Shown: positions 8,714-62,501 of the stretch, in pieces | Position numbering within the stretch: the stretch's first letter is position 1 | How the letters are laid out: each line of letters begins with the position of its first letter | Assembly (NCBI RefSeq): GCF_020073745.1 | Contig: NZ_JAIRAU010000047.1 | Location: 285,990 to 349,989, forward strand | Direction: 5' to 3' | From: Nannocystis pusilla | GTDB taxonomy: Bacteria; Myxococcota_A; Polyangia; Nannocystales; Nannocystaceae | DNA length: 64,000 bases | Position numbers and translations under genes: made by a program | The notes under the pieces: generated by a model | Seen by the model: only the letters and a program-made list of their open reading frames with translations | Databases searched by the model: none | What the model was told of the DNA's origin: nothing

Positions 8714-9785
<1,072 letters not shown>

Positions 9786-9787
<2 letters not shown>

Positions 9788-9868
9788 GCATGTCCTCGAG
9801 AGCCTGTCGATACGCGCGTGTCCGTCCGGGCATGTCCCCGCGAACAGGCTCCTTCGCACATGTCCTCT
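9786..9868. repeat. six-unit phased palindromic array (14-bp period: ...gagCATGtcc / agCCTGtcg / gcgCGTGtcc / gggCATGtcc / gaaCAGGctc / gcaCATGtcc)
   Basis: CATG/CCTG/CGTG/CAGG cores fall at 9789, 9803, 9817, 9831, 9845 and 9859, exactly 14 bp apart. The array spans the malK stop and the MalE-F start. Confidence 0.85.
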
Positions 9869-12027
9869 GCCTCATCTTCGCCCTGCTCGCCGCCCTCGCC
9901 CCCGCCCGCGCGCGGGCCGACGACCTGCGGCTGTGGCACGCCTACCGCGACGCCGAGGCCGCCGCCCTGGTCGAGGTCGTCGAGCGCTTCAGCGCGGCCA
10001 CCGGCCACCGCGTCGAGCTGCTGGCCGTCGCCCACGAGAGCTTCGCCAGCAAGCTGGTGGCGACCATCCCGCGCGGCCAGGGGCCCGACGTCTTCATCGA
10101 CTCGCACGAGCGCCTCGGCGACTACCGCCAGCGCGCCCTCGTCGGCCCGGCGACCGCGGCGCTCGACGACCCCGCCGTCTACTCCGCGCAGTCGCTGGCC
10201 GCGGTCACCCGGGACGGCGTCGTCTGGGGCGTGCCGCTGAGCGCCAAGTCGGTCGCCCTGTTCGTCAACACCGGTCTCGTCGGACATGTCCCGAAGACCC
10301 TGGAGGAGATCGCCGCGCTGTCGCTGCCCGCCGGCGTCTACCCGCTCGCCTACGAGGCCCAGAGCGCCTACGGTCACATGCCGCTGCTTGCGGCCTTCGG
10401 CGGGCGCATGCTCGCCGAGGACGCCTCCTTCGGGTTCGTCGGACCGGCCGCCGAGCGCTCGCTGGCGTTCGCGCGCGAGCTCGCCGAGCGCGGCGCCGTC
10501 CCGCGCGACGCCGACGGTGCGCTGGTCGCCGACCTGTTCCGCAGCGGTCGGGCCGCGTTCGCGATCAGCGGTCCGTGGCTGGTCGGCGACCTCGCGCAGG
10601 TCCGCTTCGCCTGGCGCGTCATCCCGCTGCCCGTCGTCGCCGAGACCGGCCTGCCGATGCGCCCGCCGCTGACCGTCGAGGCCGCCATGCTGTCGCCGCA
10701 GGGCGCCGCCAAGCCGGCCGCGCTGGCCCTGGCCCGCGCTCTCGGCGGCGCCGACGCGGCCGAGCTGCGCCAGCGCCAGGCCGGCACCCTGTCCGTGAGG
10801 ACAGACGTACCTGTCCCCGAGGACAACCCCGTCCTCGCCGGCTTCCGCGCCCAGGCCGAGCTCGCCGAGCCGATGTCGGCCGACCCGGCGATGCGCTCGA
10901 CCTGGGAGCCGGCCTTCCGCGCGATCCGCAAGGTCCTGCGCGGCCAGGCCGACCCCGCCGAGGCCCTCGCCGAGGCCGCGCACCGCTTCGCCGACGTGCG
11001 CCGCCCCCCGCCGGCCGCCGCCTCGCCGACCCCCGCGCTGTTGCTGCTCGGCCTCGGCCTCCTGCTCGTCGCGTTCCACCTCGTCCGCCGCGCCCGCGAC
11101 CCCGACGCGCGCCAGGCATTGCGCCGCTCGCTGCCCGCCTACCGCTATGTCGCCCACAGCGTCGTCGTCGTCGGCCTGCTGGTGTTCGTCCCGCTGATCG
11201 TCGGCGCCGCCACCTCGCTGTTCGCCGGCCGCCCCGGCGAGGGCTACTACGTCGGCCTCGCCAACTTCGTCGAGATCCTCACCGCCCGCGGCGGCCCCCT
11301 GCTCGCCACCGGCTCGTTCTGGTTCGTCCTCCTCGTCACCTTCCTGTGGACGGCCGTCAACGTCGTCCTCCACCTCGGCATCGGCCTCGCGCTCGGCCTC
11401 GTGCTGTCGCGCCCGACCCTGCGCCTGCGCGCGCTCTACCGCGTGCTGCTGATCATCCCCTGGGCCGTCCCCAGCTACGTCACCGCCCTGGCGTGGAAGG
11501 GCATGTTCCACCAGCAGTACGGCGCCGTCACCGGCCTGATCCACGCCGTCAACGACCTGTTCGGCACCAGCGTCGAGCCGATCGCCTGGTTCTCGCGCTT
11601 CGCCACCGCCTTCGCCGCCAACGTCGCCACCAACGTGTGGCTCGGCTTCCCCTTCATGATGGTCGTCACCCTCGGCGCGCTCACGGCCGTGCCCGCCGAC
11701 GTGCTCGAGGCCGCCGAGGTCGACGGCGCCTCGCGCTGGCAACGCCTCACCCGCGTCACCCTGCCGATGATCCGCCCCGCCCTCGCCCCGGCCGTCACCC
11801 TCGGCGCGATCTGGACCTTCAACATGTTCAACGTCGTGTTCCTCGTCTCGGGCGGCGACCCCGACGGCGCGACCGACATCCTCGTCAGCGAGGCCTACCG
11901 CTGGGCCTTCACCCGCGAGGCCCAGTACGGCTACGCCGCCGCCTACGCCGTCCTGATCTTCCTGCTCCTGCTCGTCACCACCCGCCTGCCGGCCTGGCTG
12001 GCCCGCCGCTCGGAGGCCGCGCGATGA
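9832..12027 (+). CDS. fused maltose/maltodextrin-binding protein (MalE-like) and ABC permease (MalF-like)
   Basis: Single stop-free frame. Signal peptide 'MSPRTGSFAHVLCLIFALLAALAPARARA'. The MalE-like solute-binding domain is followed, without a stop, by a permease with the EAA-type motif 'EAAEVDGASRWQRLTRVTLPMIRPAL'. An alternative start at ATG 9784 overlaps the malK stop. The N-terminus is encoded by a 6-unit palindromic array. Confidence 0.7.
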   Translation: MSPRTGSFAHVLCLIFALLAALAPARARADDLRLWHAYRDAEAAALVEVVERFSAATGHRVELLAVAHESFASKLVATIPRGQGPDVFIDSHERLGDYRQRALVGPATAALDDPAVYSAQSLAAVTRDGVVWGVPLSAKSVALFVNTGLVGHVPKTLEEIAALSLPAGVYPLAYEAQSAYGHMPLLAAFGGRMLAEDASFGFVGPAAERSLAFARELAERGAVPRDADGALVADLFRSGRAAFAISGPWLVGDLAQVRFAWRVIPLPVVAETGLPMRPPLTVEAAMLSPQGAAKPAALALARALGGADAAELRQRQAGTLSVRTDVPVPEDNPVLAGFRAQAELAEPMSADPAMRSTWEPAFRAIRKVLRGQADPAEALAEAAHRFADVRRPPPAAASPTPALLLLGLGLLLVAFHLVRRARDPDARQALRRSLPAYRYVAHSVVVVGLLVFVPLIVGAATSLFAGRPGEGYYVGLANFVEILTARGGPLLATGSFWFVLLVTFLWTAVNVVLHLGIGLALGLVLSRPTLRLRALYRVLLIIPWAVPSYVTALAWKGMFHQQYGAVTGLIHAVNDLFGTSVEPIAWFSRFATAFAANVATNVWLGFPFMMVVTLGALTAVPADVLEAAEVDGASRWQRLTRVTLPMIRPALAPAVTLGAIWTFNMFNVVFLVSGGDPDGATDILVSEAYRWAFTREAQYGYAAAYAVLIFLLLLVTTRLPAWLARRSEAAR

Positions 12028-12074
12028 CCCACCGCCGACGCCCGTCTCGTCGCCCCCCGCCGACGCGTCCCTTC

Positions 12075-12127
12075 GAGCATGCCCCTGCGACCATGTCCTT
12101 CGGGTCATGCCCCTCACGACATGCCCT
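12075..12127. repeat. four-unit phased array of GMCATG(Y)CC units (period 14-15 bp) in the malF-malG intergenic region
   Basis: 'gagcatgcccc tgcga ccatgtcc ttcggg tcatgcccc tcacg acatgccc'. Confidence 0.8.
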
Positions 12128-12163
12128 GACGACCATCCACCCCGCCATCATCGAGGTCGGCCG

Positions 12164-17944: not shown

Positions 17945-18290
17945 GGACATGCTCTCCAAAACATGTCCTCCAAAACATTATCGTAAGGACATGTCCTCGA
18001 CGGCCTCCTGCTCGCCCCTCCTTCGGCGCCCAGCGCTGCGCCGCCGGGCCCCCACTGCGCGGAGCGCCGCCTCGCTCGCCGCGCCGGGAAGGACTGGTCC
18101 TGCGCACCGACGCCGGCCGTTTGATGTCCACCATCCTCGTCATTCCCCGCCCGGCTCGAGCCACGCTCTCGCCGCTCGTGACGCCCCGCGACGACCTGTC
18201 CCGCCCGGACAGAGCGCCGCTCGCGTCGCTCTCGTGACCCCCGCGGCGCACCTGCTCCCCCGGGTTCGAGTCCCGCTCGCGTCGCCCGTC

Positions 18291-18806: not shown

Positions 18807-18926
18807 AGATCGCGGTCACGCGCCTGCGGCCCTGAATATTCCCCGGGAACCTCGCCGGGGCGGCGCTGTCTGCCGCTCCCGAGCGACGCGCGTGCGGCCG
18901 GTGGCGGCCGACCTGTCCGTCGCGAC

Positions 18927-19487
18927 ATGTCCATTTCGCCAGCTGACTCATCGCTGCCATCGGAGGACCCCGCCGTGCCCACCCGCAAGCCGCCCGAGGA
19001 AGAGACCGTCCAAGCCGACCTCCTGCCCGTCATGAACATCATGTTCTTGCTGATCCCCGCCTTGCTGCTGGCGATGGAGTTCGCCAGCATGGCCCAGATC
19101 TCGGTCGCCGTCCCGCGCACCGTCAGCGACGTGACCGCGCGGCCGAAGGATCCCGGCCAGCCCGAGCTCGGCTTCAAGGTGGCGATCGGCCGCGACGGCT
19201 TCCGCACCCGCTCCGGCGGCGCCGACGCCGGCCCGGGCACGATCCCCCTGAGCGGCGGCGCCTACGACTACGCCGCCCTCGCCGCCGCCGCCCGCGACCT
19301 CAAGCAGCTGTTCCCCACCGAGTCGACCGTCACAATCACCGCCGAGGGCGACGTGCCGATGGACGTCCTCGTCCGCACCATCGACGTCCTCCGCGGCGAC
19401 AGCTGCAAGCTCGGCGGCTGGGCCCGCGGCGAGCAGCCCGGCGACGGCTGCCTGTTCTGGACGCCGGTGATCGAGAGCGTCGGCTGA
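18927..19487 (+). CDS. ExbD/TolR-like biopolymer transport protein (tentative)
   Basis: 186 aa. Single N-terminal TM 'LLPVMNIMFLLIPALLLAM', similar to the ExbD signature, followed by a periplasmic domain. The start ATG lies inside a GACATGTCC palindromic unit. Confidence 0.4.
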   Translation: MSISPADSSLPSEDPAVPTRKPPEEETVQADLLPVMNIMFLLIPALLLAMEFASMAQISVAVPRTVSDVTARPKDPGQPELGFKVAIGRDGFRTRSGGADAGPGTIPLSGGAYDYAALAAAARDLKQLFPTESTVTITAEGDVPMDVLVRTIDVLRGDSCKLGGWARGEQPGDGCLFWTPVIESVG

Positions 19488-19858
19488 GCCCGCGGCTTCG
19501 AGCATCGCCCCCCGCGCCGTTGCCCGGGTGCTTTGGACATGTCTCACAAGACATGTCCATGAGAACATCTCATTGCCGGCCCAAGGTCCGCGCGGCCGCG
19601 TGCCCCGCAGGTCGCCTCACCTTGACGAGCAGTCTCCTGACGCCTCCGGGCCGCTGCAAGGCCGCCCACGCCGCCAGGTCGGGGGGCCCCGCAACGGGCG
19701 CAGCTTCACGCGACCTCACGCGTGCGCGAAGCGCGGCTCGCCCTTCCGCCCAGGCGCGAGGCGACGCTCGCGCTCGCGCGGCGAGCGGCGGCATTCGCCG
19801 CGACGCTGAATGAGGATCGCCGGCGCGCGTTCTCGCGCCCCGCGCGCGCTCGCGCGCC

Positions 19859-20292: not shown

Positions 20293-22821
20293 ATGATCGG
20301 ATCCCCGGAGCCTGGCGTGCGCAGCGGCTCGCGCCGAACCTCGCAAGCCGGGCCGCGGGCCGGCTGCTCGTGCGAGCTGCTGCTCTCGCTGTGCGCCGCC
20401 GACTCGGTCCAGGGCGTCCTGGCCGCCCACGGCCTCGACGTCGCCCGCCTGCGCGCCGTCGTCGACGAGCTCCACGCCGAGGTCGAGACCGAGCCGGCCG
20501 ACTGGCGCCTGCGGATCACCCAGCGCGGCGGTCGCGCCGCCGACCCCGACCTCGACCTCCTGCTCGCCCTCGTCCGCTCCGCCGACTCGCACGCCTACCA
20601 GCTGCTCGAGCGGGCCGGCGCCGCCTGCGGCGCCCTGCGCAAGCTGCTGATCGACCGCCTGCGCGCGCTCGAGGCCGCCGCGCTCACCGGGACAGGTCCC
20701 TCGCGCCATGTCCCATCCGGCATGTCCTCCGAGACAGCCCTGCCGCGGCGCCCCGTCGTCCAGCGCATGTCGACCATCGGCGCCGCCGGCGAGCGCCCGG
20801 TCCGCCGCTCGCTCGCCGACGCGCGCGCGAGTGACATGTCCCCGCGGACAGGTGCCGGCGACGCCCCGCCCCGCCCCGCCCGCGGCGGCGGCGCCCGCAC
20901 CTGGCCCGAAGGCCAGCCTGCCGCGCGCCCGGCCCGACCGACCGACGTCCGCACCTGGCCCGAAGACCACCCGGCCCGCGCCCGCCTCGACGCCCCCCGC
21001 GCCCGGCCCGAAGACCCGCGCGCGCCGACCCGCGCCCAGCCGCGCCTGCCCGCCCGCCCCGAGCCGGGCCGCGCCTCGGCCCTGGCCCTCAAGCCAGGTC
21101 CAGGCGCCCAGGTCGCGCCGGCCGGCGAGCCCGAGCCGCGCCCGGCCCCCGCGCCCCAGCCCGAGGCCCGCAGCCAGCGCCTGAGCCCGATCGACCCCTC
21201 GGCCCTGCCGCCGCTGCACGGCCGCGAGGGCGAGCTGGCGCGCCTCGCCGACGCCGTCCTGCGCCGCTCGCCGCGCCCGCCGCTGCTCGTCGGCCCGGCC
21301 GGCAGCGGCCGCACGCTGGTCGCCAAGCACCTCGCCGGCCTGCTGCACCAGCCGGTCTTCTACCTGTCCGCGACCCGCTACGAGGACGAGGACGGCCTGC
21401 GCGCCGACCTCGCCGCCGTCGCCAAGCAGGGCGGCGTCGCCATCCTCGACGACCTCGACCGCCTCGGCGGCGACGGCCCGCCGGCGCTGCTCGGCGCCCT
21501 CGCCAAGGCCTGGTCTTCGGGACAGCCGCCGATCGTCGCCGTCGCCTCGCCCGAGGGTCAGGCCCGCCTGTGCGCCTGGGCCCCCGGCCTGGCCGCCGCC
21601 CTCGACCTCGTCACCCTCCAGCCGCTCGAGGGCGACGACCTGCGCGCCGCCGTGGCCGCCGCCGCGCCCGCGGTGCTGGCCCAGCACGGCCTGTCTCTCG
21701 GGTCAGGTAGTCGCCTCGCCGAGCTCGTGCGCCTGTCCGACCGCTTCCTCGCCGGCCTGGCCCAGCCCGGCCGCAGCCTCGACCTGCTCGACCTCGCCTG
21801 CGCCCGCACCGCCCGCGAGGGCCGCGGCGCCGTCCAGCGCGACACCTGGATCGACATCGTCTGCGAGCGCAGCGGCGTCCCGCGCGAGCGCCTCGAGGGC
21901 CAGGGCCACCAGGACATGCTCGAGCTCGAGGCCGAGCTCGCGCGCAAGGTCGTCGGCCACGAGCACGCCCTCGCCGCCGTCGCCCAGCTGATCCGCAGGA
22001 ACCGGGCCGGCTTCGGCTCGCAGCGCCCGATCGCCACCGTCCTCCTGCTCGGGCCCAGCGGCGTCGGCAAGACCGAGATCGCCAAGGCCCTGTGCGGCGC
22101 CCTGTTCGACCGCCCCGACGCGTTCGTCCGCCTCGACATGAGCGAGTACGCCGAGGCCCACGCGGTCGCGCGGATCGTCGGCGCCCCGCCCGGCTACGTC
22201 GGCCACGAGCAGGGCGGCGCGCTGACCGACCCGCTGCTCAAGCAGCCGCACTGCGTCGTCCTCCTCGACGAGATCGAGAAGGCCCACCGCGACGTCCACC
22301 AGCTGCTGCTGCAGGTGTTCGACGAGGGCCGGCTCACCGACGGCCGCGGCCGCACCATCGACTTCCGCCACGCCGCGATCATCATGACCTCGAACCTCGG
22401 CGCCACCTGCCTCGACGCCACCGGCGACGCCCGCCTCGACGAGGCCCGCGTGCTCGAGGCCGCCCGCGCCGCCTTCCCGGTCGAGCTGTGGAACCGCATC
22501 GAGGCCCCGCTGGTGCTCCACCCGCTCGGCGGCGAGCAGCTGGCCCGGATCTGCGCCCGCCTGGTCCGCGCCTCCTCCGACCGCCTGCTGCGCGAGCGCG
22601 GCATCCGCTACCGCCTCACCGAGGCCGCCACCCGCCACGTCGTCTCGCTGTGCGGAAAGGACATGTCCCTTGGGGCACGTCCCTTGCGACATGTCCTTAC
22701 GCGCAGCGTCGAGGCCCTCCTGGCCGACGCGATCCTGCGCGGCCAGATCCGCGCCGGCATGCAGGTCGAGGTCGATCTCGACCACACCGGCGCGCTGTGC
22801 CTGCTGGCCTCGCGCGCCTAG
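20293..22821 (+). CDS. ClpA/ClpB-family AAA+ ATPase with degenerate first nucleotide-binding domain
   Basis: 842 aa. Clp_N-like N-terminus. D1 P-loop is 'GPAGSGRT' (Lys to Arg). D2 is canonical: 'GPSGVGKTE' and 'VVLLDEIEKAH'. A sensor-2 region 'GARPL' is present. A roughly 150-aa Pro/Arg/Ala low-complexity insert lies between the domains. Confidence 0.8.
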   Translation: MIGSPEPGVRSGSRRTSQAGPRAGCSCELLLSLCAADSVQGVLAAHGLDVARLRAVVDELHAEVETEPADWRLRITQRGGRAADPDLDLLLALVRSADSHAYQLLERAGAACGALRKLLIDRLRALEAAALTGTGPSRHVPSGMSSETALPRRPVVQRMSTIGAAGERPVRRSLADARASDMSPRTGAGDAPPRPARGGGARTWPEGQPAARPARPTDVRTWPEDHPARARLDAPRARPEDPRAPTRAQPRLPARPEPGRASALALKPGPGAQVAPAGEPEPRPAPAPQPEARSQRLSPIDPSALPPLHGREGELARLADAVLRRSPRPPLLVGPAGSGRTLVAKHLAGLLHQPVFYLSATRYEDEDGLRADLAAVAKQGGVAILDDLDRLGGDGPPALLGALAKAWSSGQPPIVAVASPEGQARLCAWAPGLAAALDLVTLQPLEGDDLRAAVAAAAPAVLAQHGLSLGSGSRLAELVRLSDRFLAGLAQPGRSLDLLDLACARTAREGRGAVQRDTWIDIVCERSGVPRERLEGQGHQDMLELEAELARKVVGHEHALAAVAQLIRRNRAGFGSQRPIATVLLLGPSGVGKTEIAKALCGALFDRPDAFVRLDMSEYAEAHAVARIVGAPPGYVGHEQGGALTDPLLKQPHCVVLLDEIEKAHRDVHQLLLQVFDEGRLTDGRGRTIDFRHAAIIMTSNLGATCLDATGDARLDEARVLEAARAAFPVELWNRIEAPLVLHPLGGEQLARICARLVRASSDRLLRERGIRYRLTEAATRHVVSLCGKDMSLGARPLRHVLTRSVEALLADAILRGQIRAGMQVEVDLDHTGALCLLASRA

Positions 22822-26946: not shown

Positions 26947-27821
26947 TGTCCGCCCCCGAGCTCGACCTCGGCCTCGCCGCCCTCCTCGGCGCCCTCCAGG
27001 GCGTGGCCGAGTTCCTGCCGATCTCCTCGTCCGGCCACCTCGCCCTGGCCCAGCGCGTCGCCGGCCTCGACGCCGGCGCCGGCGGCCACTCGTTCAACAT
27101 CGTCGTCCACGCCGGCACCCTGCTGGCCGTCCTGTTCCACTACCGCGGCGACCTGCTCGCGCTGGCCCGCGCCGTCTTGCGTCCGGGACATGTCCCCCAG
27201 CACATGCCCGATGCGCCAGGCTCGGAAGGACATGTCCCCTCGGGCAGCTCACCGAGCGACGCGCGAGCGCTGCTGCTCGCGCTCGTCCTCGGCACCTTGC
27301 CGCTGGCCGCCGCCCTCGCCCCGCCGGTCGAGAACCTCGTCATCGCCGCCGAGCACCACCCCCGGGCCATCGGCGCCTGCTTCCTCGTCACCGCGGCGAT
27401 GCTCGGCCTGGCCGAGTGGCTGACCCGCCGGCGCCGGAGCCCGCAGGAGGTCCCGCGGCCGCTGCAGGCGCTGCTCATCGGCCTCGCGCAGCTCGTCGCC
27501 ATCCTGCCCGGCATCTCGCGCAGCGGCTCGACGATCGCCGCCGCCATGGGCCTCGGCCTCGGCCGCCTGCCGGCCGCGCGCTTCTCGTTCCTGCTGGCGA
27601 TCCCCGCCATCCTCGGCGCCGCGCTCAAGGAGGCGCTCGACCTGATGAAGGAGGGCCTGCCCGCCGTCGACCCGCTCGCCTTCGTCGTCGGCTTCTTCGT
27701 CAGCTTCGTCGTCGGCGTCGCCACCCTGCGCGTGCTGCTGGTCCTGCTGGTCCGCGTCGGCGTGGTGCCCTTCGTGCCCTACCTCGTCGTCCTCGGCCTC
27801 GCCGTCCTCGCCCTCGGCTAG
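26946..27821 (+). CDS. uppP: undecaprenyl-diphosphate phosphatase UppP/BacA
   Basis: 291 aa. Conserved 'EFLPISSSGH' and 'PGISRSGSTI' motifs and 8 TM segments. The loop at 27181-27245 is encoded by palindromic units. Confidence 0.85.
   Translation: MSAPELDLGLAALLGALQGVAEFLPISSSGHLALAQRVAGLDAGAGGHSFNIVVHAGTLLAVLFHYRGDLLALARAVLRPGHVPQHMPDAPGSEGHVPSGSSPSDARALLLALVLGTLPLAAALAPPVENLVIAAEHHPRAIGACFLVTAAMLGLAEWLTRRRRSPQEVPRPLQALLIGLAQLVAILPGISRSGSTIAAAMGLGLGRLPAARFSFLLAIPAILGAALKEALDLMKEGLPAVDPLAFVVGFFVSFVVGVATLRVLLVLLVRVGVVPFVPYLVVLGLAVLALG
27185..27240. repeat. three palindromic units (GGGACATGTCCC, CACATGCCCG, GGACATGTCCC; core spacing 14 and 28 bp) inside the uppP coding sequence
   Basis: Direct reading. 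The units encode loop peptide 'RPGHVPQHMPDAPGSEGHVPSG'. Confidence 0.85.
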
Positions 27822-28196
27822 GAGCCTGTCCGGGAAATCGCGGGGCCGGAGGCGCGGGGCCGTGGAGTTCTGGGTGACGGCGGGCACGGAGCGGCGGAGC
27901 GGGTCCCTCGCTTCGGCGGGGCCCTCCCAGGCAACGTGCTCGGCGCCCTCGGGCTTCGATATCGATCTGTCGTTGAGGACAGGTTCGTACGTGCCTCACG
28001 GACGATGGCGCCTGCGCGCGGTTGCCTGCGGCCCCTCCCGCCGGCGTCCCACTCCGCCGCTCCGTGCCCGCCTGCGAAGAGCGTCGCCGGCCCCGCTTGT
28101 CGCCGCGCGGGAGCCTCACGGAGCGGCGGCGAGTGCGGCGCGTCCGGCTTCGTTTCTACCTGTCCTAAAGAACAGGACCGATCCACCATAACCTTG

Positions 28197-28236
28197 TAGA
28201 CATGCCCATCACGACATGCCCGTACGAGCATGCCCT
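28197..28236. repeat. three direct GACATGCCC units at 14-bp spacing, preceded by GTCCT-N7-AGGAC inverted repeat (28160-28178)
   Basis: 'tagacatgcccatcacgacatgcccgtacgagcatgccct', in the convergent uppP/queA intergenic region. Confidence 0.8.
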
Positions 28237-28245
28237 ACCGACGGC

Positions 28246-29277
28246 TCAGCCGCCGGCCCGCGTGAGCAGCATGCAGTCGCCGTACGAGTAGAAGCGGTAG
28301 CCGGCGGCCACCGCCTCGGCGTAGGCCGCCAGCACCCGCTCGCGCCCGCCGAGGCAGCACACCAGCATCAGCAGCGAGCTGCGCGGCAGGTGGAAGTTGG
28401 TGACGATCGCGTCGACCACCTTGAACTCGAAGCCGGGCGCGATCACCAGGTCGGTCGTGCCGGAGAACGGCGCGATCTCGCCGGCGCGGGCGACCGACTC
28501 GAGCGCGCGCGTGGCCGTGGTGCCGACGGCCACGACCGGCCGGCCCTCGGCCTTCGCCGCCGCGATCCGGCTCGCCGCCCCCGCGTCGAGCTCGACCCGC
28601 TCGGCGCCGACCTTGTGCTCGCGGACATCCTCGGCCTCGAGCGGCAGGAACGTGCCCGGACCGACGTGCAGCGTCACCCGCACGACGTCGAGCTGCGCCA
28701 GCACCTCGGGCTCCCAGTGCAGCCCGGCCGTCGGCGCGGCCACCGAGCCCGGCTGGGCCGCGTAGATCGTCTGGTAGCGCGACGCGTCCTCGTCGGTCGG
28801 CCCCGCGGGCCGGCGGATGTACGGCGGCAGCGGCACCTCGCCGCGGCTCGTGAGCGCGCCCATCCACTCGCCGGCCTCGACGCAGAACACCCGCGCCCGC
28901 GGGTCGACGGCGTCGGGCTCGACGTAGCGGGCCACCCACTCGCCGCAGCGCACCACGTCGCCGGCCCGCAGCCGCTTGGCCCCGCGGACCCACGCGCGGA
29001 ACGTCTGCCCCGGCGACAGCCCCGGCCGCGGATCGCAGACCAGCAGCTCCAGCTCGCGCCCGTTGTGCAGCACCCGCAGCCGCGCCGGCACCACCCGCGA
29101 GTCGTTGACCACGACCAGCGCGCGCGGGTCGAGGAAGCGCGGCAGCTCACGCGCATACGCGTGGACCGGCGCCCCCGCGTCGCGCTGCACCAGCATGCGG
29201 GCATCGCCGCGCCGCGCCGCGGGCGTCTGGGCGATCTGCTCGGACGGCAACACGTAGTCGTAGGCTTCGGGACCCAT
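28246..29277 (-). CDS. queA: S-adenosylmethionine:tRNA ribosyltransferase-isomerase QueA
   Basis: 343 aa. N-terminal 'YDYVLPSEQIAQTPAARRGDARMLV' and the QueA core 'TAGLHWEPEVL...TLHVGPGTFLPL'. Confidence 0.85.
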   Translation of the reverse strand: MGPEAYDYVLPSEQIAQTPAARRGDARMLVQRDAGAPVHAYARELPRFLDPRALVVVNDSRVVPARLRVLHNGRELELLVCDPRPGLSPGQTFRAWVRGAKRLRAGDVVRCGEWVARYVEPDAVDPRARVFCVEAGEWMGALTSRGEVPLPPYIRRPAGPTDEDASRYQTIYAAQPGSVAAPTAGLHWEPEVLAQLDVVRVTLHVGPGTFLPLEAEDVREHKVGAERVELDAGAASRIAAAKAEGRPVVAVGTTATRALESVARAGEIAPFSGTTDLVIAPGFEFKVVDAIVTNFHLPRSSLLMLVCCLGGRERVLAAYAEAVAAGYRFYSYGDCMLLTRAGG

Positions 29278-35240: not shown

Positions 35241-35298
35241 CATTCATGACCTCTGGGACAGGAGCGCGAGCCGGCTGCCATGTCCCGCGGGACAGCTC

Positions 35299-35940
35299 TC
35301 AGGAGCGCGAGCCGGTGCGCGCGTGGGCGCGGCGGCCCGGCACGTCGGCGCGCTGCATCGGCGCCGGCGGCAGCTCGAGCCGCGGGTCGGCGGGCTGGCT
35401 GCGGCGCAGCACGTCGAGCGAGACCTCGTCGAACTCGTCGTCGACGTCGTCCTCCTCGAGGTCCTCGCGCGCGGTGAAGCGGCGGCGGAGGATCAGCGCC
35501 TCGTCGGCCTCGTCGCCGAGCTCCTCCTCGTCGACCTCGTCGAGCTCGGCCGGATCGGCGCACGGCGGCTCGAGCTCGAGCTGGGCCGGGCCGGCGCGCC
35601 GCTTGCGAGCCGCGGGGGCGGACTTGCCGGCCGGGGCGTTGAGGCTCGCACGCAGCTCGACGCCCGGGCGGAAGTCGATCGTGAAGGCCGCGTCGATCGT
35701 CATGGGCTCGAGCGTCCGCGGGTTGACGCCCTTGCGAGCCGAGCGCTTCTTCTTGGTGAAGGTGCCGAAGCCGGGGAACGTGAAGCGCGGGCTCTGGGCC
35801 CGCGTCACCCTCGCCTTGACGAAGTAGGCGGCCATCTCCCCGAACGCGATCTCGAGGATCTGCTGCACGCACTTCTTCGTGATGTCCGGCGGCAGATCAC
35901 GGTTGCGTGCGATTTTTTCGATGAGTTCAGCCTTCGTCAT
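35299..35940 (-). CDS. HU/IHF-family DNA-binding protein with long charged C-terminal extension
   Basis: 213 aa. N-terminal 90 aa match the HU fold ('MTKAELIEKIA', 'GFGTFTKKKRSARKGVNPRT'). The C-terminal 120 aa form an acidic/Ala/Arg-rich tail. Confidence 0.7.
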   Translation of the reverse strand: MTKAELIEKIARNRDLPPDITKKCVQQILEIAFGEMAAYFVKARVTRAQSPRFTFPGFGTFTKKKRSARKGVNPRTLEPMTIDAAFTIDFRPGVELRASLNAPAGKSAPAARKRRAGPAQLELEPPCADPAELDEVDEEELGDEADEALILRRRFTAREDLEEDDVDDEFDEVSLDVLRRSQPADPRLELPPAPMQRADVPGRRAHARTGSRS

Positions 35941-37802: not shown

Positions 37803-39108
37803 TCAGTTCGTCGCCGCCAGCGCGTCGAGCAGCCAGGCCGCCAGCGCCGCCTTGGCGATCGGCGGGCCCGACGCGCGCACGGCGATCGCGTCGCCGTCGC
37901 GCGCCAGCAACAGGCCGGCGTTGGTCGCCGACGCGAAGCCGACCCCGGGCGCGCCGACGCGGTTGACGAAGATCGCGTCGGCGCCCTTGGCCCGCAGCTT
38001 GGCCGAGCCGAGCCGGATCAGCTCCTGCTGCAACCTGTCCTCGGGGCCATCCTCGACCGTCTGCGCGGCGAACCCGAGGAAGCGCGAGCGCGGGGCGCCC
38101 GGCGCCGCGCCGCGGCCGAAGCGGACCGTGAGCGCGGCGAGGATGTCGGGCGCGGCCCGCCAGGCGAGCGTCGGCAGCGTCGCCAGCAGCTCGGCCTTCT
38201 CGAGCTTGCGCGCGGCGCCGCCGTCGATCTCGAGGTCTTGCACCGCCGCGACCATGGCCACCCAGTCACATGGCCCTTGAGACAGCTCGTTCTCCAGCGC
38301 CGCCTGCATCTCGGCCGCGGTCTCGACGTCGACGCGGCGCACCCCCGCCGGCGTGGCCAGCTCGACCGGTCCGGCCACCAGCGTCACCGCGGCGCCGGCG
38401 CGCTGGGCCGCCTCGGCCAGCGCGAAGCCCATCGCCCCGGTCGACGCGTTGGTGACGAAGCGGACCGGATCGATGTACGTGCGCGTCGGCCCGGCCGACA
38501 CCAGCACGCGCTTGCCCGCCCACGGCCCGCGGCCGACGCCGAGCCGCGCCAGCGCGGCGGCGACGATCAGCGGCGGGTCGATCATGCGGCCCTCGCCGAT
38601 CCACCCGCACGCCAGCTGCCCGCGATCGGGCCCGACGAACTCGGCCCCGCGGGCGCGCAGTGTCGCCAGGTTGTCCTGCGTGGCCGGGTGGCGCCACATG
38701 TTCGTGTTCATCGCCGGCGCCCACAGCACCGGCGCGCGCGTGGCCAGCAGCACCGTCGCGGCGAGGTCGTTCGCCAGGCCGTGGGTCGCGCGCGCCAGCA
38801 GGTCGGCGGTGGCCGGCGCGACGACCACCAGGTCGGGCCAGTCGGCGAGCTCGATGTGGCCGACGTGGCCCTCCTCCTCCGGGTCGAGCAGGCGCGTGCG
38901 CACCGGCCGGGTCGACACCGTCGCCAGCGACAGCGCGCTGACGAACGCCTCCGCCGCCGGCGTCATCACCACCTGGACCTCGCAACCGGCGGCGACGAAC
39001 GCCCGCACCAATTCCGGCGCCTTGTAGGCCGCGATCCCGCCGCTGACGATCAGCAGGACGCGACGGCCCCGCGGACGTGTCCCATGGGACATGTCCGTGG
39101 CACCAGCC

Positions 39109-39116
<8 letters not shown>
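37803..39116 (-). CDS. coaBC: bifunctional phosphopantothenoylcysteine decarboxylase/phosphopantothenate-cysteine ligase CoaBC
   Basis: 437 aa. Flavoprotein N-terminus '[20 protein letters not shown]' and 'PAMNTNMW'. C-terminal CoaB ligase domain. An alternative start at the ATG inside a palindromic unit at about 39092 would remove the overlap with ribBA. Confidence 0.85.
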
Positions 39117-40273: not shown

Positions 40274-41029
40274 TTAGCTGTTCTTGGAGACAGGTGCTTC
40301 GGGACAGGGCGCTTCGGACCTGTCCCCGGAGTCAGCATTCACGTCGGCCGCGGCGGCGTAGCCGGCCGCGGCGTCGAGGTAGCCGGCGCGGACCAGGGCC
40401 TCGCGCGTGACCGCGGGCGCGGCGGCCCGGCCGGCCTCGGCCCCGGCGCCGAGCAGGCGGGCGACGTAGCGCGCCAGCAGGTCGACCTCGAGGTTGAGCG
40501 CGTCGCCCACCTTCAGGTCGGCCAGGGTCGTGGCCGCGAGCGTGTGCGGGATCAGGCCCACGGCGAACCCACGCGGGTCGACCGCGTTGACCGTGAGGCT
40601 GACGCCGTCGACGCACACGCTGCCCTTGACCGCGATGTAGCGGGCCAGCTCGCCCGGGACGTCGAACCACATCTCGACCGCGTCGCCGCGGGCGACCCGG
40701 CTGCGCACGCGCGCCAGGCCGTCGACATGGCCGGACACGAGGTGGCCGCCGAGCGCGTCGCCGAGCCGTAGCGCCGGCTCGAGGTTGACGCGGCTGCCGG
40801 GCCGCAGCTCGCCGAGGGTGGTGACCGCGAGCGTCTCGAACGCGGCTTCGACGGTGAAGTCGCCGGCGGTCGAGGCGACCACGGTGAGACACACGCCGGA
40901 GATCGCCACGCTGGCGCCGAGGCTGCGATCGCCCTCCGACAGCGCGTAGCGGATCACGAAGGTGCGTCGCTGCGCGCCAGGGATCACGCGCTCGACCGTG
41001 CCGACGCCGCGCACGAGGCCGGTGAACAT
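40274..41029 (-). CDS. ribE: riboflavin synthase alpha subunit with atypical C-terminal tail
   Basis: 251 aa. 'MFTGLVRGVGTV' start and two lumazine-binding repeats. The last 45 aa ('...ADSGDRSEAPCPEAPVSKNS') are encoded by palindromic repeat units. Confidence 0.8.
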   Translation of the reverse strand: MFTGLVRGVGTVERVIPGAQRRTFVIRYALSEGDRSLGASVAISGVCLTVVASTAGDFTVEAAFETLAVTTLGELRPGSRVNLEPALRLGDALGGHLVSGHVDGLARVRSRVARGDAVEMWFDVPGELARYIAVKGSVCVDGVSLTVNAVDPRGFAVGLIPHTLAATTLADLKVGDALNLEVDLLARYVARLLGAGAEAGRAAAPAVTREALVRAGYLDAAAGYAAAADVNADSGDRSEAPCPEAPVSKNS

Positions 41030-49003: not shown

Positions 49004-49250
49004 CCGGCCGCATGTAGCGCGTGGCGCCAGGGCTGTCAAACCGCCGCCAGCCCGGATCCATTCCCCGCCAGCCCCGGATCCTTGTGGATCCTTCTGTTGA
49101 CACGGCAAACGTGGATTGGCTATTGCCTCCCGGCCCTTGGTCGCCTCTGAGCCCACTGCGCGCCTCGGAGGCGCCGACGCGAGTCCCGAGCTCGACGCGC
49201 CCGGCGACGTCCGGGTCGACGCGCCGGCGCGTCCGCTCGACGACATCATG

Positions 49251-49313
49251 ATGCGCACGCCCGACGACCTCATGCGCACGCGCGACGACCTCATGCGCAC
49301 GCGGGTCGTCGCG
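49251..49313 (+). repeat. three tandem 21-bp repeats each starting with ATG (ATGCGCACGCSCGACGACCTC), at the 5' end of the giant gene
   Basis: Direct reading: 'atgcgcacgcccgacgacctc atgcgcacgcgcgacgacctc atgcgcacgcgggtcgtc'. A 15-bp duplication 'gcctgcctgatcggc/gcctgtctgatcgga' follows. Confidence 0.85.
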
Positions 49314-52300
49314 GTCTCGGCCTGCCTGATCGGCGCCTGTCTGATCGGACTTGTCCCTCGGGACAGCCACGCCGCGCGCCCGGTCCGGCAGCTCGGCATG
49401 GTCGCCTCGACCGGCGCGCCGACCTGGCCGGCCCTGCACGCCGCGCCCGGGCTGCGCCCCACCGACCTGGTCGCCGGCCTCGGCGCGCCGCTGCTGCTCG
49501 CCCCGCCGCGCACCACCCCGCGGCGCCTGCCCGGCGGCCAGGCCGAGCCGCCCGCCGGCGAGCCGCCCGCCGGCGAGCCGCCCGCGAGCGAGGCGACGCC
49601 GGTCGAGCCTGTCCCCGAGGACATGCCCGATCAGCCAGGGCCTTCGGCACCTGGCCCCACGGGCAGCCCGTTGACGCGGCCGACCCCGAACCTCGCGCCG
49701 CCGCCGAGCGGCGACGATCTCGAGGCCGGCGACGAGGAGGTCGCGCCGGCGCCGGAGCCGACCAACGACAACGCCCCGCCAGTGACGGTGCTGGTGCCCG
49801 AGCCGGAGAAGCCCGACCCGGCCGACGAGGTCCCGCGCTTCCTCAAGGGCAAGAGCGTCCCGCCGTTCTGGATCGACCGCACCTACACGACGCACCGCAC
49901 GCGCGCGCTGACGCTGCCGCCGCTGTTCTTCGACCGCCGCGGCACCGCGACCCACCCGGAGAAGCTGTTCCACTTCAACCTGTCCTTGACGACAGGTTGG
50001 TACAGCCAGCGCACGGCCAAGCGGCGGTGGTTGTCGCCGGCGATCCTGTTCTTCGGCTCGTTCAGCGAGCGCACCAGCGGCTGGGGCGCGGTCGCGCTGC
50101 TGATGGGCTACAAGCGGGTCGGCGAGCAGTTCAGCTTCGGCCAGTTCCCGTTCGTGTGGCGGTGGGGCAACAAGTCGGTCAAGAACCTGATCGTCGTCCC
50201 CTTCCACTACCACCAGAAGACGCCCGACAGCATGCGCGGCTTCTCGGCGCTGCTGTTCTGGTACGGCCACAAGAACACCACCGACAAGGATCCGCTCAAC
50301 GACCTGCGCTACTTCGTCGGCGCGCCGCTGTTCTACCGCGTGACCCGCGGCCCGAGCACCGTCAACGTCGGCGTCCCGCTCTACGTGGGCGGGCAGAACA
50401 AGGCCCGCGGGGTCAAGTGGCACACGGTGCTGCCGTTCGTGCACTGGCAGTCGAGCGAGTACGGCAACCGCAAGGACCTGTGGACGCTGCTGTACGTGCA
50501 GCGCAGCGACAAGGCCCGCAGCCAGCGCACCTGGGCGGTCCCGCCGCTCCTCACGTTCTCGCGCCAGACCCCGACGCGCAAGCTGTTCTCGGCCACGCCG
50601 CTGGTGTGGCGCGCCGAGAACCGCGACCGCGGCAGCGTCGCCTGGTCGGCGTTCCCGTGGGTCAGCTACCGCGACCCGGAGCAGCGCAACCGGGTGCTGT
50701 TCCCGCTGTTCTGGCAGTTCGGCGACGTCAAGGCCGGCGTCACCAGCAGCGTGTTCGTCCCGCTGCTGTACGCGCGCAAGAGCCCGCAGGACACGCGGGT
50801 CTACACCCTGCTCGGAGGCGGTCGCGCCGGCAAGGACGGCCGCTGGGGCTTCGGCATCACCCCGCTGCTGACGTTCGTGCGCAACGAGCCCGGCGGCAAC
50901 AGCTTCCAGGTCGTCACGCCGCTGTTCGGCCACTCGCACGACCCGAGCGCCTACGACGGCAAGGGCTCGCGCACGCTGTCGGCCGGCGTGCTCGGCTTCT
51001 ACCGCCGCCGCGGCGAGCGCTGGGACGCCGGCCTCGCCCCGCTCGCGTTCGTCGGCCGCGACGGCACCCGCTCGTACCAGACCATCACCCCGCTGTTCTG
51101 GCACCGCCGCGACACCGACCCGGCCAAGCCGAGCGACCTGTGGGTGCTCGGCCCGATCTACGCCAAGAAGGTCAAGTCCGGCGGCCACGGCGGCCTCGCC
51201 CCGCTGGTGTTCGCCGGGCGCGACGACAAGTTCCGCTACGGCATCGTCCCGCCCTTGCTCTTCGGACATGTCCACGACGTCGAGGCCCAGCGCGCGCTGA
51301 CGGTGTCGCCGCTGTTCGCCCGCAGCAAGGGCCCCGACCACCGCACGATCGGGGTGCTCAACCTGTTCTGGGACGTGAAGCGCGCCGGCGACGAGCGCCA
51401 CACCGCGCTGTTCCCCCTCTTCTACCGGCGGCAGAAGGACGGCAAGGCGCTCACCCTGACCCCGCTGGGCGGCGCCTATCGCACGCCGGAGCAGCGGACC
51501 TGGTCGGCCGCGGCGCTCCTGTACGGCTTCCGCGGCTACAAGGATCCGGTCCGCCGCGGCTTCGGCCTGATCCCGCTGGTGTTCTACGACCGGCGCAAGG
51601 TCGAGGGCGGCGTCGCCAGCAACCTCGTCGTCGCGCCGCTGTTCGCCCGCCACCGCGCGCCGAGCGAGGACCTCGACATGTGGTCGCCGCTGGTCTGGCG
51701 CACCGCCACGCGCGGCGAGAAGCCGCGCAAGAACCTCGCGGTCGTCCCGTTCTACTTCCGCCAGCGCCAGCCCGAGGGCATCGACGTCGACGCCGGCCTG
51801 CTGCTGCCGTTCTTCTACAGCCGCGACAAGATCCGGCGCACGCACACGCTCATCGCCGGCCCGGCGTTCCACCGCCTCACCCGCACCTCGCTCCACGCCG
51901 GCGTGGTCCCGGTCTACTGGTGGATGGACTCGGCCGAGAAGCGGCGCCTGATCTCGCTGCCGCTCATCTTCCACCAGGCCGACAAGGCGAAGAACGAGCA
52001 CACCACCATCGCCGTGCCGTTCTGGTTCGACCGTCAGCGGGCCAACGGTCGCCGCTCGTGGGTCGCGTTCCCGTTCGTCGTCGGCGTCAAGGGTCAGTTC
52101 AACTTCACGCGCTTCAGCCTGGCCCCGCCGATCTACTTCGACTTCTTCCGCCTGCACAAGAACTACCGCTTCACCGGCGTGGTCCCGTTCGCGTTCCGCT
52201 ACCAGAAGTGCGGCTTCCGCGAGGAGGACGACGATCGTTGCCGCTACACGGTGTGGGGCTCGTGGCCGTTCTTCCTCTACGGCAAGGACGGCAAGGGCCG

Positions 52301-53243: not shown

Positions 53244-53405
53244 TCGGCGGCAGTTGTCCTCCTTGCGAATGCAAGGACGATGACGACGCACGGATGACGC
53301 CGATGGGCGCGATGCGGTGCACCCGCGTCGCGCCCACACATCATGCTTGCCTGCGGCCACGAGGGCCCCGGGCGCGGACCCGGAGCCCACGTCGCGCCGT
53401 GGTGA

Positions 53406-55142
<1,737 letters not shown>

Positions 55143-55340
55143 GGTCCTCGGGTCTAAGATTCGCGGGCCGCCCACGCACGCATGGGCGAACCAGCGGAGT
55201 CGACGTAGCGTTTCGGATCGCGAGCGATCGATCAAGCGTGCAAGTCCGCGACGCGCGTCGTCGTGCCAACGAATTTCACCCGCGAAAACACCGACGCGGG
55301 CCGCCCCGGCCGGAGCGACCCGCGCGTCATGCCACATCAC

Positions 55341-57086: not shown

Positions 57087-57453
57087 GGTCGTGTCCTGTA
57101 TGCGAAGCATGTGGGCCGTCCTCGAATGCATGGCGGTCCCGCCTTGATTCCTCATGATTCATGAGTGATCAAGGCCGGTGCCTCGCGCAGCGGTCCGCAG
57201 GCCTCATTGGTGAATCTGCAGCCTCGACCGCGCGAGACCGTCGTTCCGGCGCAGGAAGCACGCGATTCGTCGTCGCTGCCGATGGTGATCCACCGCAAGC
57301 TGTCGAGCTCGCTGGAAGACCACGGGTAGACGTCACATTTGTTCGACTCGCGCGATTCGACGCAACATCACACCATCGATTCCGCCCGCTCGAGACGCGA
57401 CGAGGCGCGCACGTCGCCGTGCGCGCCGCGTCACTCGTACCTCGAGCCGTCGA

Positions 57454-59187
<1,734 letters not shown>

Positions 59188-59503
59188 GGCGAAGGTATCC
59201 TTGAACGTGGTGGCGCGCCCTTCCAGGACGGGCACGCCGCTGCCGCAGCGGCGCGCGCGCGGAATGACGTGAATCAACCGGGCCACGATTTCGGACTTCG
59301 CCGCAGGATCAAGCGTCCACCGACCTGGTGCCTTCAAACCATGCCTGACGACGATCGTGGCAAATCTGCGCCCGCAGAGGCGCTGCCGCCGCGCGCCGCT
59401 CGTTCGCTACTCCAGCGACCGCGAACCTTCGATCCGGACAACAGAGGCGCAGACTCCGCCGCAGCTGCAGAGACTGCCATGAATCAACTTCATCGCCTGT
59501 CCT

Positions 59504-60031
59504 TCAGAACCTGTCCGAAGGGACCTGTCCACTTGTTGTCGTCACGCGCCCCCGCTGGCGAACGGCGGTCAGCCGCGCCGGACCGATCCCGCGCACACGC
59601 CTCAAGTCATCGACCGTGGAGTACGGTCTCCCTTCGATGATTCGCCGCGCGAGCTCGGGACCGATCCCGGGCATACTCTCGAGCTCGCTGGCCGACGCTC
59701 GATTGAGGTCGACAGGGACCGCGAGCGCCTCGAGATCGTCTCCTCGCATTCGCCCCCAGCCGAGCTCGCCAGGTCGCGGAGATCCGCCTGCGCACAATGA
59801 TGCACGCACGATCGCGTCGCCGTGGTTCAGCACCCCGCTCGCCGTGGCGTCGCCGCACACGCTCGCGACGTCGCGCGGCGCCTCGTCGTCGCAGCGCAGC
59901 ACGCCGTCGACCTCGACGGCGAATTCGCAGGCGACCCGCACCAGCAGCTCCGGCGCCGCCGGCCTCAGCCATGCCGCCAGCGCCACCGCGAGCGCGGCGA
60001 TCAGCGCGAGCCCTGCCCCGACGCGCATCAC
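59504..60031 (-). CDS. comEA: ComEA-like helix-hairpin-helix DNA-binding protein
   Basis: 175 aa. N-terminal TM 'GAGLALIAALAVALAAWL'. C-terminal tandem HhH 'DLNRASASELESMPGIGPELARRIIEGRPYSTVDDLRRVRGIGPARL'. The last 10 codons are encoded by palindromic units. Confidence 0.7.
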   Translation of the reverse strand: MMRVGAGLALIAALAVALAAWLRPAAPELLVRVACEFAVEVDGVLRCDDEAPRDVASVCGDATASGVLNHGDAIVRASLCAGGSPRPGELGWGRMRGDDLEALAVPVDLNRASASELESMPGIGPELARRIIEGRPYSTVDDLRRVRGIGPARLTAVRQRGRVTTTSGQVPSDRF

Positions 60032-61708: not shown

Positions 61709-61766
61709 GCGCGCACCGCCGCGCGCGCCGCAAGCTGACTATTCGGACATGTCTCTCAAGACATGG

Positions 61767-62501
61767 CTATTCGGCCAGCGCGGCGAGGTAGTCGGCGACG
61801 GCCCGCGCGAGCCCGACGAACAGCGCGTGGCTGATGAGCGCGTGGCCGATCGAGGCCTCGTCGAGGTGCGGCAGGCGGCTGAACAGCGGCAGGTTGTCGA
61901 GGTCGAGGTCGTGACCGGCGTTGACGCCGAGCCCGAGCGAGTGCGCCAGCTCGGCCGCGGCGGCGAACTGCGCCAGCGAGGCCGCGCCCGCGCCGGCCGC
62001 GAAGGCCCGCGCGTACGGCTCGGTGTACAGCTCGATGCGCTGCGCGCCGACGTCGGCGGCCCAGCGCACCGCGGCGGGGTCGGCCTCGATGAACAGCGAG
62101 ACCCGCACCCCGAGCTTGTGCAGCCGGGCCACGACCGCCCCGAGCTCGGCGCGCGAGGTGTCGGGCGGCCACCCGGCCTGGCTCGTGATCTCGCCCGGCC
62201 GCACCGGCACGAGGGTGCACTGGTGCGGCCGCAGCTCCTCGACCATCGCCAGCAGGTCGGGCCGCGGGTCGCCCTCGATGTTGAACTCGACGCGATCGCG
62301 CAGCGGCGCCAGCTCGGCCGCGATCGCCCGCGCGTCGGCGGCCCGGATGTGGCGCTCGTCGGCCCGCGGGTGCACGGTGATGCCCGGCGCGCCGGCCGCG
62401 ACGATCGTCCGCACCGCCTCGATCACGCTCGGGACGTCGCCGCCGCGGGCGTTGCGGAGGGTGGCGACCTTGTTGACGTTGACGCTGAGGCGGGCGGCCA
62501 T
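61767..62501 (-). CDS. pdxJ: pyridoxine 5'-phosphate synthase PdxJ
   Basis: About 244 aa from ATG 62501 (MAARLSVNVNKVATLRNARGGDVPSVIEA...). PdxJ TIM-barrel signature ('GITVHPRADERHI', 'NIEGDP'). Confidence 0.85.
   Translation of the reverse strand: MAARLSVNVNKVATLRNARGGDVPSVIEAVRTIVAAGAPGITVHPRADERHIRAADARAIAAELAPLRDRVEFNIEGDPRPDLLAMVEELRPHQCTLVPVRPGEITSQAGWPPDTSRAELGAVVARLHKLGVRVSLFIEADPAAVRWAADVGAQRIELYTEPYARAFAAGAGAASLAQFAAAAELAHSLGLGVNAGHDLDLDNLPLFSRLPHLDEASIGHALISHALFVGLARAVADYLAALAE

Follow-up and report, generated by a model that had tools for sequence, protein, structure and literature searches.

Phased palindromic repeats at gene 3′ ends in Nannocystis and their contact with a ComEA-like gene

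The 64,000-nucleotide stretch of Nannocystis pusilla DNA analysed here, hereafter the window (RefSeq assembly GCF_020073745.1, contig NZ_JAIRAU010000047.1, positions 285,990 to 349,989), has a base composition of 72% GC and carries a family of short palindromic repeats, one array of which overlaps the end of a gene for a ComEA-like helix-hairpin-helix (HhH) protein. The repeat family is real and lineage-specific, its arrays are markers of gene and operon 3′ ends, and the word from which they are built is kept at the nucleotide level. The arrays are read here as 3′-end hairpin elements of a REP/BIME-like kind, with a probability of about 0.5. An original prediction had connected the array with the ComEA-like protein through a possible DNA uptake signal; this adjacency can, with high confidence, be regarded as incidental.

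A phased palindrome family at gene 3′ ends

The unit of the family is a 10-bp palindrome, GGACATGTCC, accompanied by a 4-nt spacer of free sequence, and arrays comprise one to six units at a spacing of exactly 14n. With one mismatch at most, the window contains 27 matches to GGACATGTCC (9 exact and 18 with one mismatch), compared with 1.73 +/- 1.29 in dinucleotide shuffles. The resulting density of 0.42 matches per kb, or ~0.7 units per kb when phased degenerate units are counted, makes the earlier estimate of about 1 per kb a mild overestimate. Match-to-match distances in all collected Nannocystis DNA fall at 14 (44 cases), 28 (24), 42 (28) and 56 bp (9), with zero cases at 11-13 and 15-17, also after removal of the ascertainment doublets. 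Spacer tetranucleotides are diverse between arrays, and neighbouring spacers resemble each other more than randomly paired ones do (1.43 vs 1.05 identities, p=3e-4), which argues that arrays grow by local 14-bp tandem duplication.

A scan for the perfect doublet, GGACATGTCC-N4-GGACATGTCC, in one genome per species across 185,579 species revealed 103 stretches. Among the matches listed, 78 of 80 belong to Nannocystis, Nannocystaceae or Myxococcales, the exceptions being a gammaproteobacterial metagenome-assembled genome and Diplocloster, and the family is in that set essentially one of Nannocystis/Nannocystaceae. Literature searches with the motif retrieved nothing bacterial of relevance, the matches being eukaryotic and chiefly p53 response elements, and a search on myxobacterial REP-like repeats found nothing relevant; the Nannocystis family is apparently undescribed. 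Scans of the window against Rfam (gathering threshold) and for tRNAs gave no match. CRISPR, iterons, parS and MrpC/FNR-type operators were rejected as identities of the family on the basis of unit size, genome-wide spread and location past stop codons.

The placement of arrays relative to genes was determined on ~918 kb of Nannocystis DNA using our own heuristic gene calls, based on GC content at third codon positions (GC3). Multi-unit arrays that had not been ascertained through the perfect doublet display the following densities.

Convergent intergenic DNA: 1.72 per kb
Co-directional (tandem) intergenic DNA: 0.37 per kb
Divergent intergenic DNA: 0.33 per kb
Inside genes: 0.056 per kb

Array density is ~30-fold higher in convergent intergenic DNA than within genes and, similarly, convergent regions, 3.4% of the DNA, contain 53% of the ascertained perfect doublets. 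In co-directional regions 48 of 66 arrays start at most 60 nt past the upstream stop (median ~16 nt), with a median of ~250 nt remaining to the next start. Arrays therefore track upstream stops, as expected of elements of gene 3′ ends. The array-carrying genes of the window have ordinary housekeeping functions (ABC transporter, CLC channel, queA, rib operon, coaBC, pdxJ). The arrays at or between genes, for which no strand is assigned, are listed below.

9785..9882: six-unit array between ABC ATPase and solute-binding/permease genes
12074..12143: array (CATGCCC variant) between two permease genes
17958..18013: array directly past the stop of the CLC-channel gene
18908..18949: array between cupin and ExbD genes
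19534..19575: array in a convergent intergenic region; perfect 10-bp hairpin, RNA minimum free energy (MFE) -25.6 kcal/mol over a 61-nt region, z -3.9
28155..28252: array in a convergent region, immediately 3′ of the queA stop
39072..39113: array at the ribBA/coaBC junction, with the coaBC ATG (39092) inside a unit
40285..40326: array over the 3′ end of the riboflavin-synthase gene
61728..61769: array at the pdxJ/Fer2_BFD junction, conserved in N. radixulma, N. exedens and N. pusilla

The word is also strongly enriched inside coding sequence. In the interiors of open reading frames (ORFs), exact copies number 26 against 0.2 expected from codon shuffling, and copies with at most one mismatch 103 against 19.4, the matches being spread along the length of genes. 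The peptide G-H-V followed by a codon starting with C is written GGA-CAT-GTC in 12 of 19 cases, for an expectation of 0.017; GGA represents 2.3% of Gly codons and CAT 6.5% of His codons. At site 51264 the window reads TTC GGA CAT GTC CAC where N. exedens has the synonymous TTC GGC CAC GTC CAC, within an ungapped, 90%-identical alignment, and this copy thus arose by point substitutions only, with no insertion. As originally predicted, the motif occurs inside genes: 17 of the 27 window matches lie within called genes, and overall 56-63% of matches do so, compared with ~80% of the DNA called coding. Coding sites turn over between species, 39 being identical vs 40 expected from flank identity, while 74 intergenic units are identical vs 36 expected from their flanks, a ~twofold excess that is partly ascertainment-biased and for which the unbiased sample is small. 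Taken as a whole, the analysis supports the view that the motif inside genes resembles a recognised DNA word, comparable to the DNA uptake sequences (DUS) and uptake signal sequences (USS) of naturally competent bacteria. Coding arrays supported by Pfam are those of UppP and of a ClpB-like protein; they are given here together with the lone site described above, again without strand.

22658..22713: three-unit array within the ClpB-like ORF, encoding KDMSLGARPLRHVL of the D2-small domain
27185..27254: array within the UppP/BacA ORF, encoding loop PGHVPQHMPDAPGSEGHVP, a Nannocystis-specific insertion of variable length
51264..51273: lone exact motif within a 1368-aa ORF; two synonymous rare codons, GGA CAT, replaced by GGC CAC in N. 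exedens

The UppP/BacA loop insertion consists of repeated GHVP[AS]DS peptides, which are two-unit arrays translated in frame, and Nannocystis proteins carrying it extend to 291-374 aa, compared with ~270-275 in other Nannocystaceae and Enhygromyxa (window; collected locus L116, 1501-2583). In the ClpB-like ORF, the bases encoding KDMSLGARPLRHVL, from the conserved D2-small segment, are under the constraints of both protein and repeat.

At tight operon junctions (ribBA/coaBC, 39087-39096; pdxJ/Fer2_BFD, 61745-61768; locus L001, 8259-8282) the downstream start lies within or beside a unit, the ATG being that of GGACATGTCC, and pairing between units could there occlude translation starts. A general role of the motif ATG as start codon or Shine-Dalgarno context was rejected: it holds at a few tight junctions (coaBC, Fer2_BFD), but arrays follow the stops upstream and not the starts downstream. 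A further array (35213-35268) is located just downstream of the stop of an HU/IHF-type (Bac_DNA_binding) ORF of 189 aa (35299-35868, minus strand), of which ~50 residues match the domain and the remainder forms an unannotated extension. Tandem repeats unrelated to the family are present as well. A 57-bp repeat of 9.2 copies with 83% matches (36959-37486) lies within a 543-aa ORF (36157-37788, minus strand), in its N-terminal half; the C-terminus of this ORF is a domain of the uracil-DNA-glycosylase superfamily. Others lie in or near ORFs at 18146-18305 (56 bp), 20892-21016 (54 bp), 24811-24959 (54 bp) and 49234-49303 (21 bp).

The array at the end of the ComEA-like gene

The features of this region are as follows.

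59504..60031, minus strand: ComEA-like coding sequence, 175 aa, identified from the ORF list, Pfam and a solved-chain match; orthologues are annotated from the ATG at 60028
59558..59722, minus strand: HhH DNA-binding domain, aa 104-158 (Pfam HHH_3, E=4.4e-15; 2DUY, E=6.6e-17)
59493..59530, no strand assigned: three-unit array of 14-bp period, with units at 59521-59530 (GGACCTGTCC), 59507-59516 (GAACCTGTCC) and 59493-59502 (TCGCCTGTCC)
59448..59463 (element 59445-59465), minus strand: weak terminator-like hairpin GGCGGAGTCTGCGC (GGCGG..TCTGCG), ~40 nt downstream of the comEA-like stop

The encoded protein displays a hydrophobic N-terminal anchor, MMRVGAGLALIAALAVALAAWL, predicted to be transmembrane, a Cys-containing middle part and a C-terminal (HhH)2 domain, in agreement with the membrane-anchored HhH ComEA homolog that had been proposed. 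Its nearest solved chain is the Thermus ComEA-related HhH protein 2DUY. Against the full-length comEA model TIGR01259 the protein reaches 42 bits, for a cut-off of 152, with the HhH part alone matching, which makes "ComEA-like HhH protein" the cautious designation. The top database proteins are annotated as ComEA-family and include those of N. radixulma (96% identity) and Nannocystis sp. SCPEA4 (95%); the ComEA-family proteins of N. pusilla, N. punicea and N. exedens are ~78% identical. The gene order pdxJ-Fer2_BFD-aspartokinase-comEA-like, followed by DUF4215 paralogues, is shared by N. radixulma, N. exedens, N. pusilla and N. punicea and for the most part also by two metagenomic relatives; a metagenome scan for further comEA orthologues yielded 2 loci only.

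Alignment of the ComEA-like proteins identifies four cysteines between the anchor and the HhH domain, C35, C47, C59 and C80, of which three are invariant and C59 is present in at least 90% of the sequences. A DG.LRC motif is located in the same region. The sequence suggests that this middle region may be a periplasmic, disulfide-bonded module specific to the myxobacterial ComEA-like clade. The neighbouring tandem DUF4215 lipoprotein-like paralogues (window 53406-59067) number three in the window and in N. exedens and four in N. radixulma and N. pusilla, and each contains a conserved near-motif, CGACATGTCC, which encodes ADMS, ~110 nt upstream of its stop.

The final codons of the comEA-like gene, GGA CAG GTC CCT TCG GAC AGG TTC TGA (GQVPSDRF*), overlap phased units, as had been noted before: on the plus strand CCTGTCC recurs at 59496, 59510 and 59524, exactly 14 bp apart, and the array takes in the last 9 codons and the stop (59504-59506). 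The three units are imperfect palindromes and imperfect copies of the consensus, GGACAGGTCC being self-complementary at 8 of 10 positions and the other two worse. Array position and phase are kept in 8 of 9 aligned sequences (the window and 7 of 8 orthologous loci), down to 59% protein identity, and the DNA downstream of the gene is poorly conserved in comparison; hairpin element GGCGGAGTCTGCGC shows partial conservation among Nannocystis species. All six loci with an alignable first unit keep GGA, a rare Gly codon, in unit 1. The stop codon has drifted between array spacers: N. exedens, N. pusilla and N. punicea have a TAG in spacer 1, the window and N. radixulma a TGA in spacer 2. The stop thus slides within an element maintained at the nucleotide level, and the "GQVPSDRF"/"SDRF" tail is therefore a by-product.

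A specific connection between the ComEA-like protein and the repeat, as originally suggested, is not borne out by the frequency and distribution of arrays. Counted from -45 to +60 nt around the stop, an array is present at 5 of 44 window genes and at 9 of 76 genes in unbiased loci, or ~12% of gene ends, and its presence at comEA is unremarkable. Distant comEA orthologues (50-51% identity), still placed beside Fer2_BFD and aspartokinase genes, reside in genomes with a near-background motif density of 0.05-0.15 per kb, compared with 0.42-0.58. It is on these two observations that the association is considered incidental. The array lies at the 3′ end of a conserved block, where a 3′-end element is expected. 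In addition, ComEA is not known to bind DNA with any sequence preference. Adjacency alone is thus no ground for annotating or pursuing ComEA as a motif-specific receptor, and the sequence preference for DUS in Neisseria is attributed to another protein, the minor pilin ComP (PMC8897410).

Hairpin formation and competing explanations

In the mechanism proposed here, adjacent self-complementary units would pair into a hairpin with a 10-bp stem and a 4-nt loop, on either strand, so that arrays could act as orientation-independent 3′-end elements. Candidate roles include partial or bidirectional terminators, barriers to 3′ exonucleases (3′ stabilisation) and intercistronic attenuators, and the word would presumably be maintained by a sequence-specific reader. 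RNA folding was significant in 4 of 8 regions (-25.6 to -47.9 kcal/mol, z -3.5 to -5.2) and not in the other 4, and repeat-bearing 3′ regions form more stable folds than repeat-free ones even though their GC content is lower. After the 1350-aa gene, an array is found in N. exedens and N. pusilla where the window (53243-53406) and N. radixulma carry an unrelated small hairpin, CCTTGCATTCGCAAGG. It is these stable folds, the exchange of array and hairpin at this site and the location past stops that favour a REP/BIME-like hairpin role at 3′ ends. A canonical GC hairpin followed by T7 lies past the last DUF4215 gene of N. exedens (L001, ~16770-16810), and classical intrinsic terminators therefore coexist with arrays.

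Several observations weigh against this assignment. Gene calls are heuristic and most loci in the location set were ascertained by the perfect doublet. None of the comparisons aimed at selection on the transcript reached significance: variants compatible with wobble pairing on the sense strand do not significantly outnumber incompatible ones (49 vs 33, p=0.10), the comparison of sense with antisense MFE is not significant (41 vs 34), symmetric spacers show no excess of complementarity and spacers no preference for GNRA/UNCG tetraloops. No U-tract was found downstream of arrays, the T fraction being 0.06-0.2 from position 4 and up to 0.45 at positions 1-3. The array at the comEA-like end keeps the GGACAGG halves only and folds weakly in the window (z -1.2). 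Arrays also occupy junctions inside apparent operons (ribE/ribBA/coaBC), and not all of them can therefore be efficient terminators. Finally, a plain hairpin function leaves the conserved sequence and the exact 4-nt spacer unexplained, and does not account for single units written with rare codons in ORFs; conserved sequence, invariant spacer and rare-codon copies together point to a sequence-specific reader of duplex DNA, or to drive.

The foremost alternative, itself rather unlikely, takes this indication at face value and holds that arrays are phased binding sites for a sequence-specific double-stranded DNA-binding protein, hairpin potential being a side-effect of dyad-symmetric sites. The reader could be a nucleoid-associated protein, a roadblock or termination factor at gene ends, or a HIP1-like system with an orphan methyltransferase acting on the CATG core, and arrays would accumulate past stops since binding there disturbs neither promoters nor elongation. 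Such recognition fits the exact 14n spacing with free spacer sequence, conservation that peaks at the central CATG and declines outward, the absence of strand asymmetry, as duplex recognition predicts, the maintenance of single ORF sites through rare codons and the partly ascertainment-biased excess of intergenic units identical between species (74 vs 36 expected). However, coding sites are no better conserved than their flanks (39 vs 40 expected), the 14-bp period does not coincide with the helical repeat, though 42 bp corresponds to four turns, no candidate protein emerged, and the preference for positions just past the upstream stop fits a role at transcript ends more directly. Precedents exist in HIP1, a palindrome under selection with a supposed role in chromosome structure (PMC5861425), and in Myxococcus xanthus CdbA, whose motif, a direct repeat with a 4-bp gap, is bound at >500 sites (PMC7156744). 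CdbA itself was set aside as the reader and is retained as a lead only: the direct repeat that it recognises has its copies about one helical turn apart.

It is improbable that the word is a signal for DNA uptake or transformation specificity, DUS/USS-like or HIP1-like, read by a pilin or another receptor that need not be ComEA. Under this explanation molecular drive spreads the word, and gene-end arrays are its tolerated, hairpin-forming version, like inverted DUS pairs. The word is genus-specific and over-represented, its ORF copies arise by synonymous changes to rare codons and its coding sites turn over between species, as drive predicts. The proportion of matches in called genes (56-63%) is near that of USS in Pasteurellaceae, where 47-70% of copies lie in coding DNA, compared with 84-89% of DNA being coding, and a role as terminators has been put forward for intergenic inverted-repeat uptake sequences (PMC2346458); in a cyanobacterium, methylated HIP1 palindromes reportedly raise natural transformation (bioRxiv 10.1101/2024.09.10.611283). 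On the other side, phased 14-bp arrays of up to six units are not predicted by uptake, the copies are degenerate (9 exact vs 18 one-mismatch), no competence gene besides the ComEA-like gene was found among the window ORFs scanned, and adjacency to ComEA carries no weight. Exact copies, at ~1 per 7 kb, are ~6-fold sparser than the ~1 per kb of DUS/USS, and we know of no report of competence or uptake bias in Nannocystis. A bolder version, also a long shot, would make GGACATGTCC a "self" word of the whole genus, recognised in duplex DNA by its own dedicated protein, and thereby a third independent lineage of uptake or recombination specificity of the DUS/USS/HIP1 kind; being palindromic, the word could then have multiplied into phased arrays that serve as gene-end hairpins as well, and the ComEA-like protein need not be the reader.

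Little probability is likewise attached to a selfish miniature repeat (REP/RAYT-, MITE- or RPE-like) devoid of host function and tolerated past stops and in permissive loops. It would accommodate the lineage restriction, the local tandem duplication, the species differences in unit copy number at one site (UppP loop, 291-374 vs ~270-275 aa) and the presence or absence of an array at the convergent site past the 1350-aa gene, but arrays are kept at orthologous sites across the genus, the lone coding motif arose via point substitutions without an indel, and spacers are unrelated between arrays with no conserved flank or GTAG head, and whole arrays were therefore not copied and pasted. Beside arrays, the examination of flanks for a GTAG head or target site revealed decaying further units only. 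No recurrent transposase-like neighbour was found among the 684 ORFs of array-bearing loci, and a recurrent mobile-element gene was accordingly rejected; by sequence inspection, the largest ORF clusters resemble Ser/Thr and PAS-type kinases.

Weighing the placement, folding and coding evidence together, the arrays are most likely hairpin elements built from a recognised word of the HIP1/DUS type. If the family is as it appears, Nannocystis genomes would carry a few thousand copies of the palindrome, as extrapolated from window density to 11-13 Mb, and its rigid 14-bp phase implies a specific molecular reader. The identity of this reader would show how transcription units end in a GC-rich myxobacterium whose gene-end arrays lack a U-tract, and would explain why conserved proteins carry peptide insertions (GHVP[AS]DS) and C-terminal tails that are specific to the lineage. 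It would also provide a sequence tag for the engineering of natural-product producers (terminators, transformation, genome annotation).

Relation to known repeat and uptake systems

The closest resemblance in layout is to the REP/BIME elements of enterobacteria and pseudomonads, which are also short palindromic units arrayed with fixed short linkers, located past stop codons and between convergent genes, capable of forming hairpins on either strand and lineage-specific in sequence. In contrast, the Nannocystis unit measures 10 bp only, so that a hairpin requires two units, its spacer is free in sequence and invariant in length, its arrays lack the GTAG head, and the motif is also found in ORFs by means of rare codons (the UppP and ClpB-like arrays and single units in many ORFs). 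No RAYT was seen, there being no recurrent transposase-like ORF in array-bearing loci, in an analysis that did not include a whole-genome RAYT search.

Intrinsic terminators share with the arrays a stable hairpin a few to tens of nucleotides past the stop, bidirectional in convergent regions. The Nannocystis arrays differ in lacking a U-tract, in the conserved sequence of the stem and in their occurrence inside operons and ORFs.

Like the motif described here, HIP1 (GCGATCGC) of cyanobacteria is a short palindrome over-represented within and between genes independently of codon usage, for which roles in chromosome structure and methylation (PMC5861425) and, lately, in transformation (bioRxiv 10.1101/2024.09.10.611283) have been proposed. 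HIP1 exceeds one site per gene in some genomes (PMC5861425), compared with 0.42 matches per kb in the window. Moreover, phased tandem arrays at gene ends are not known for HIP1, whose ORF sites are conserved, whereas the Nannocystis coding sites turn over.

The DUS of Neisseria and the USS of Pasteurellaceae are lineage-specific words enriched in coding and non-coding DNA, and their intergenic copies form hairpins near gene ends. They are non-palindromic, mostly exact, present at ~1 per kb and not known to be tandem-phased. The likeness to DUS/USS drawn in the original prediction holds for a word maintained at the nucleotide level in ORFs and for a similar coding share, and fails for the palindromic, degenerate and tandemly phased Nannocystis word, whose exact copies are sparser; to our knowledge, strict 14-bp phased arrays have been described for neither USS nor DUS.

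The competence receptor ComEA likewise possesses a membrane anchor and a C-terminal (HhH)2 domain. The Nannocystis gene, in contrast, is found in a housekeeping block and not beside comEC or pil genes, no pilin genes were identified among the window ORFs scanned, and the middle domain of the protein is lineage-specific, with three invariant and one nearly invariant Cys residues.

The repeat family thus shares traits with REP/BIME, HIP1, DUS/USS and intrinsic terminators and departs from each in at least one defining feature. If the family is as it appears, it joins REP/BIME-like arrays at gene ends with a HIP1/DUS-like maintenance at the nucleotide level inside genes, two properties otherwise seen apart.

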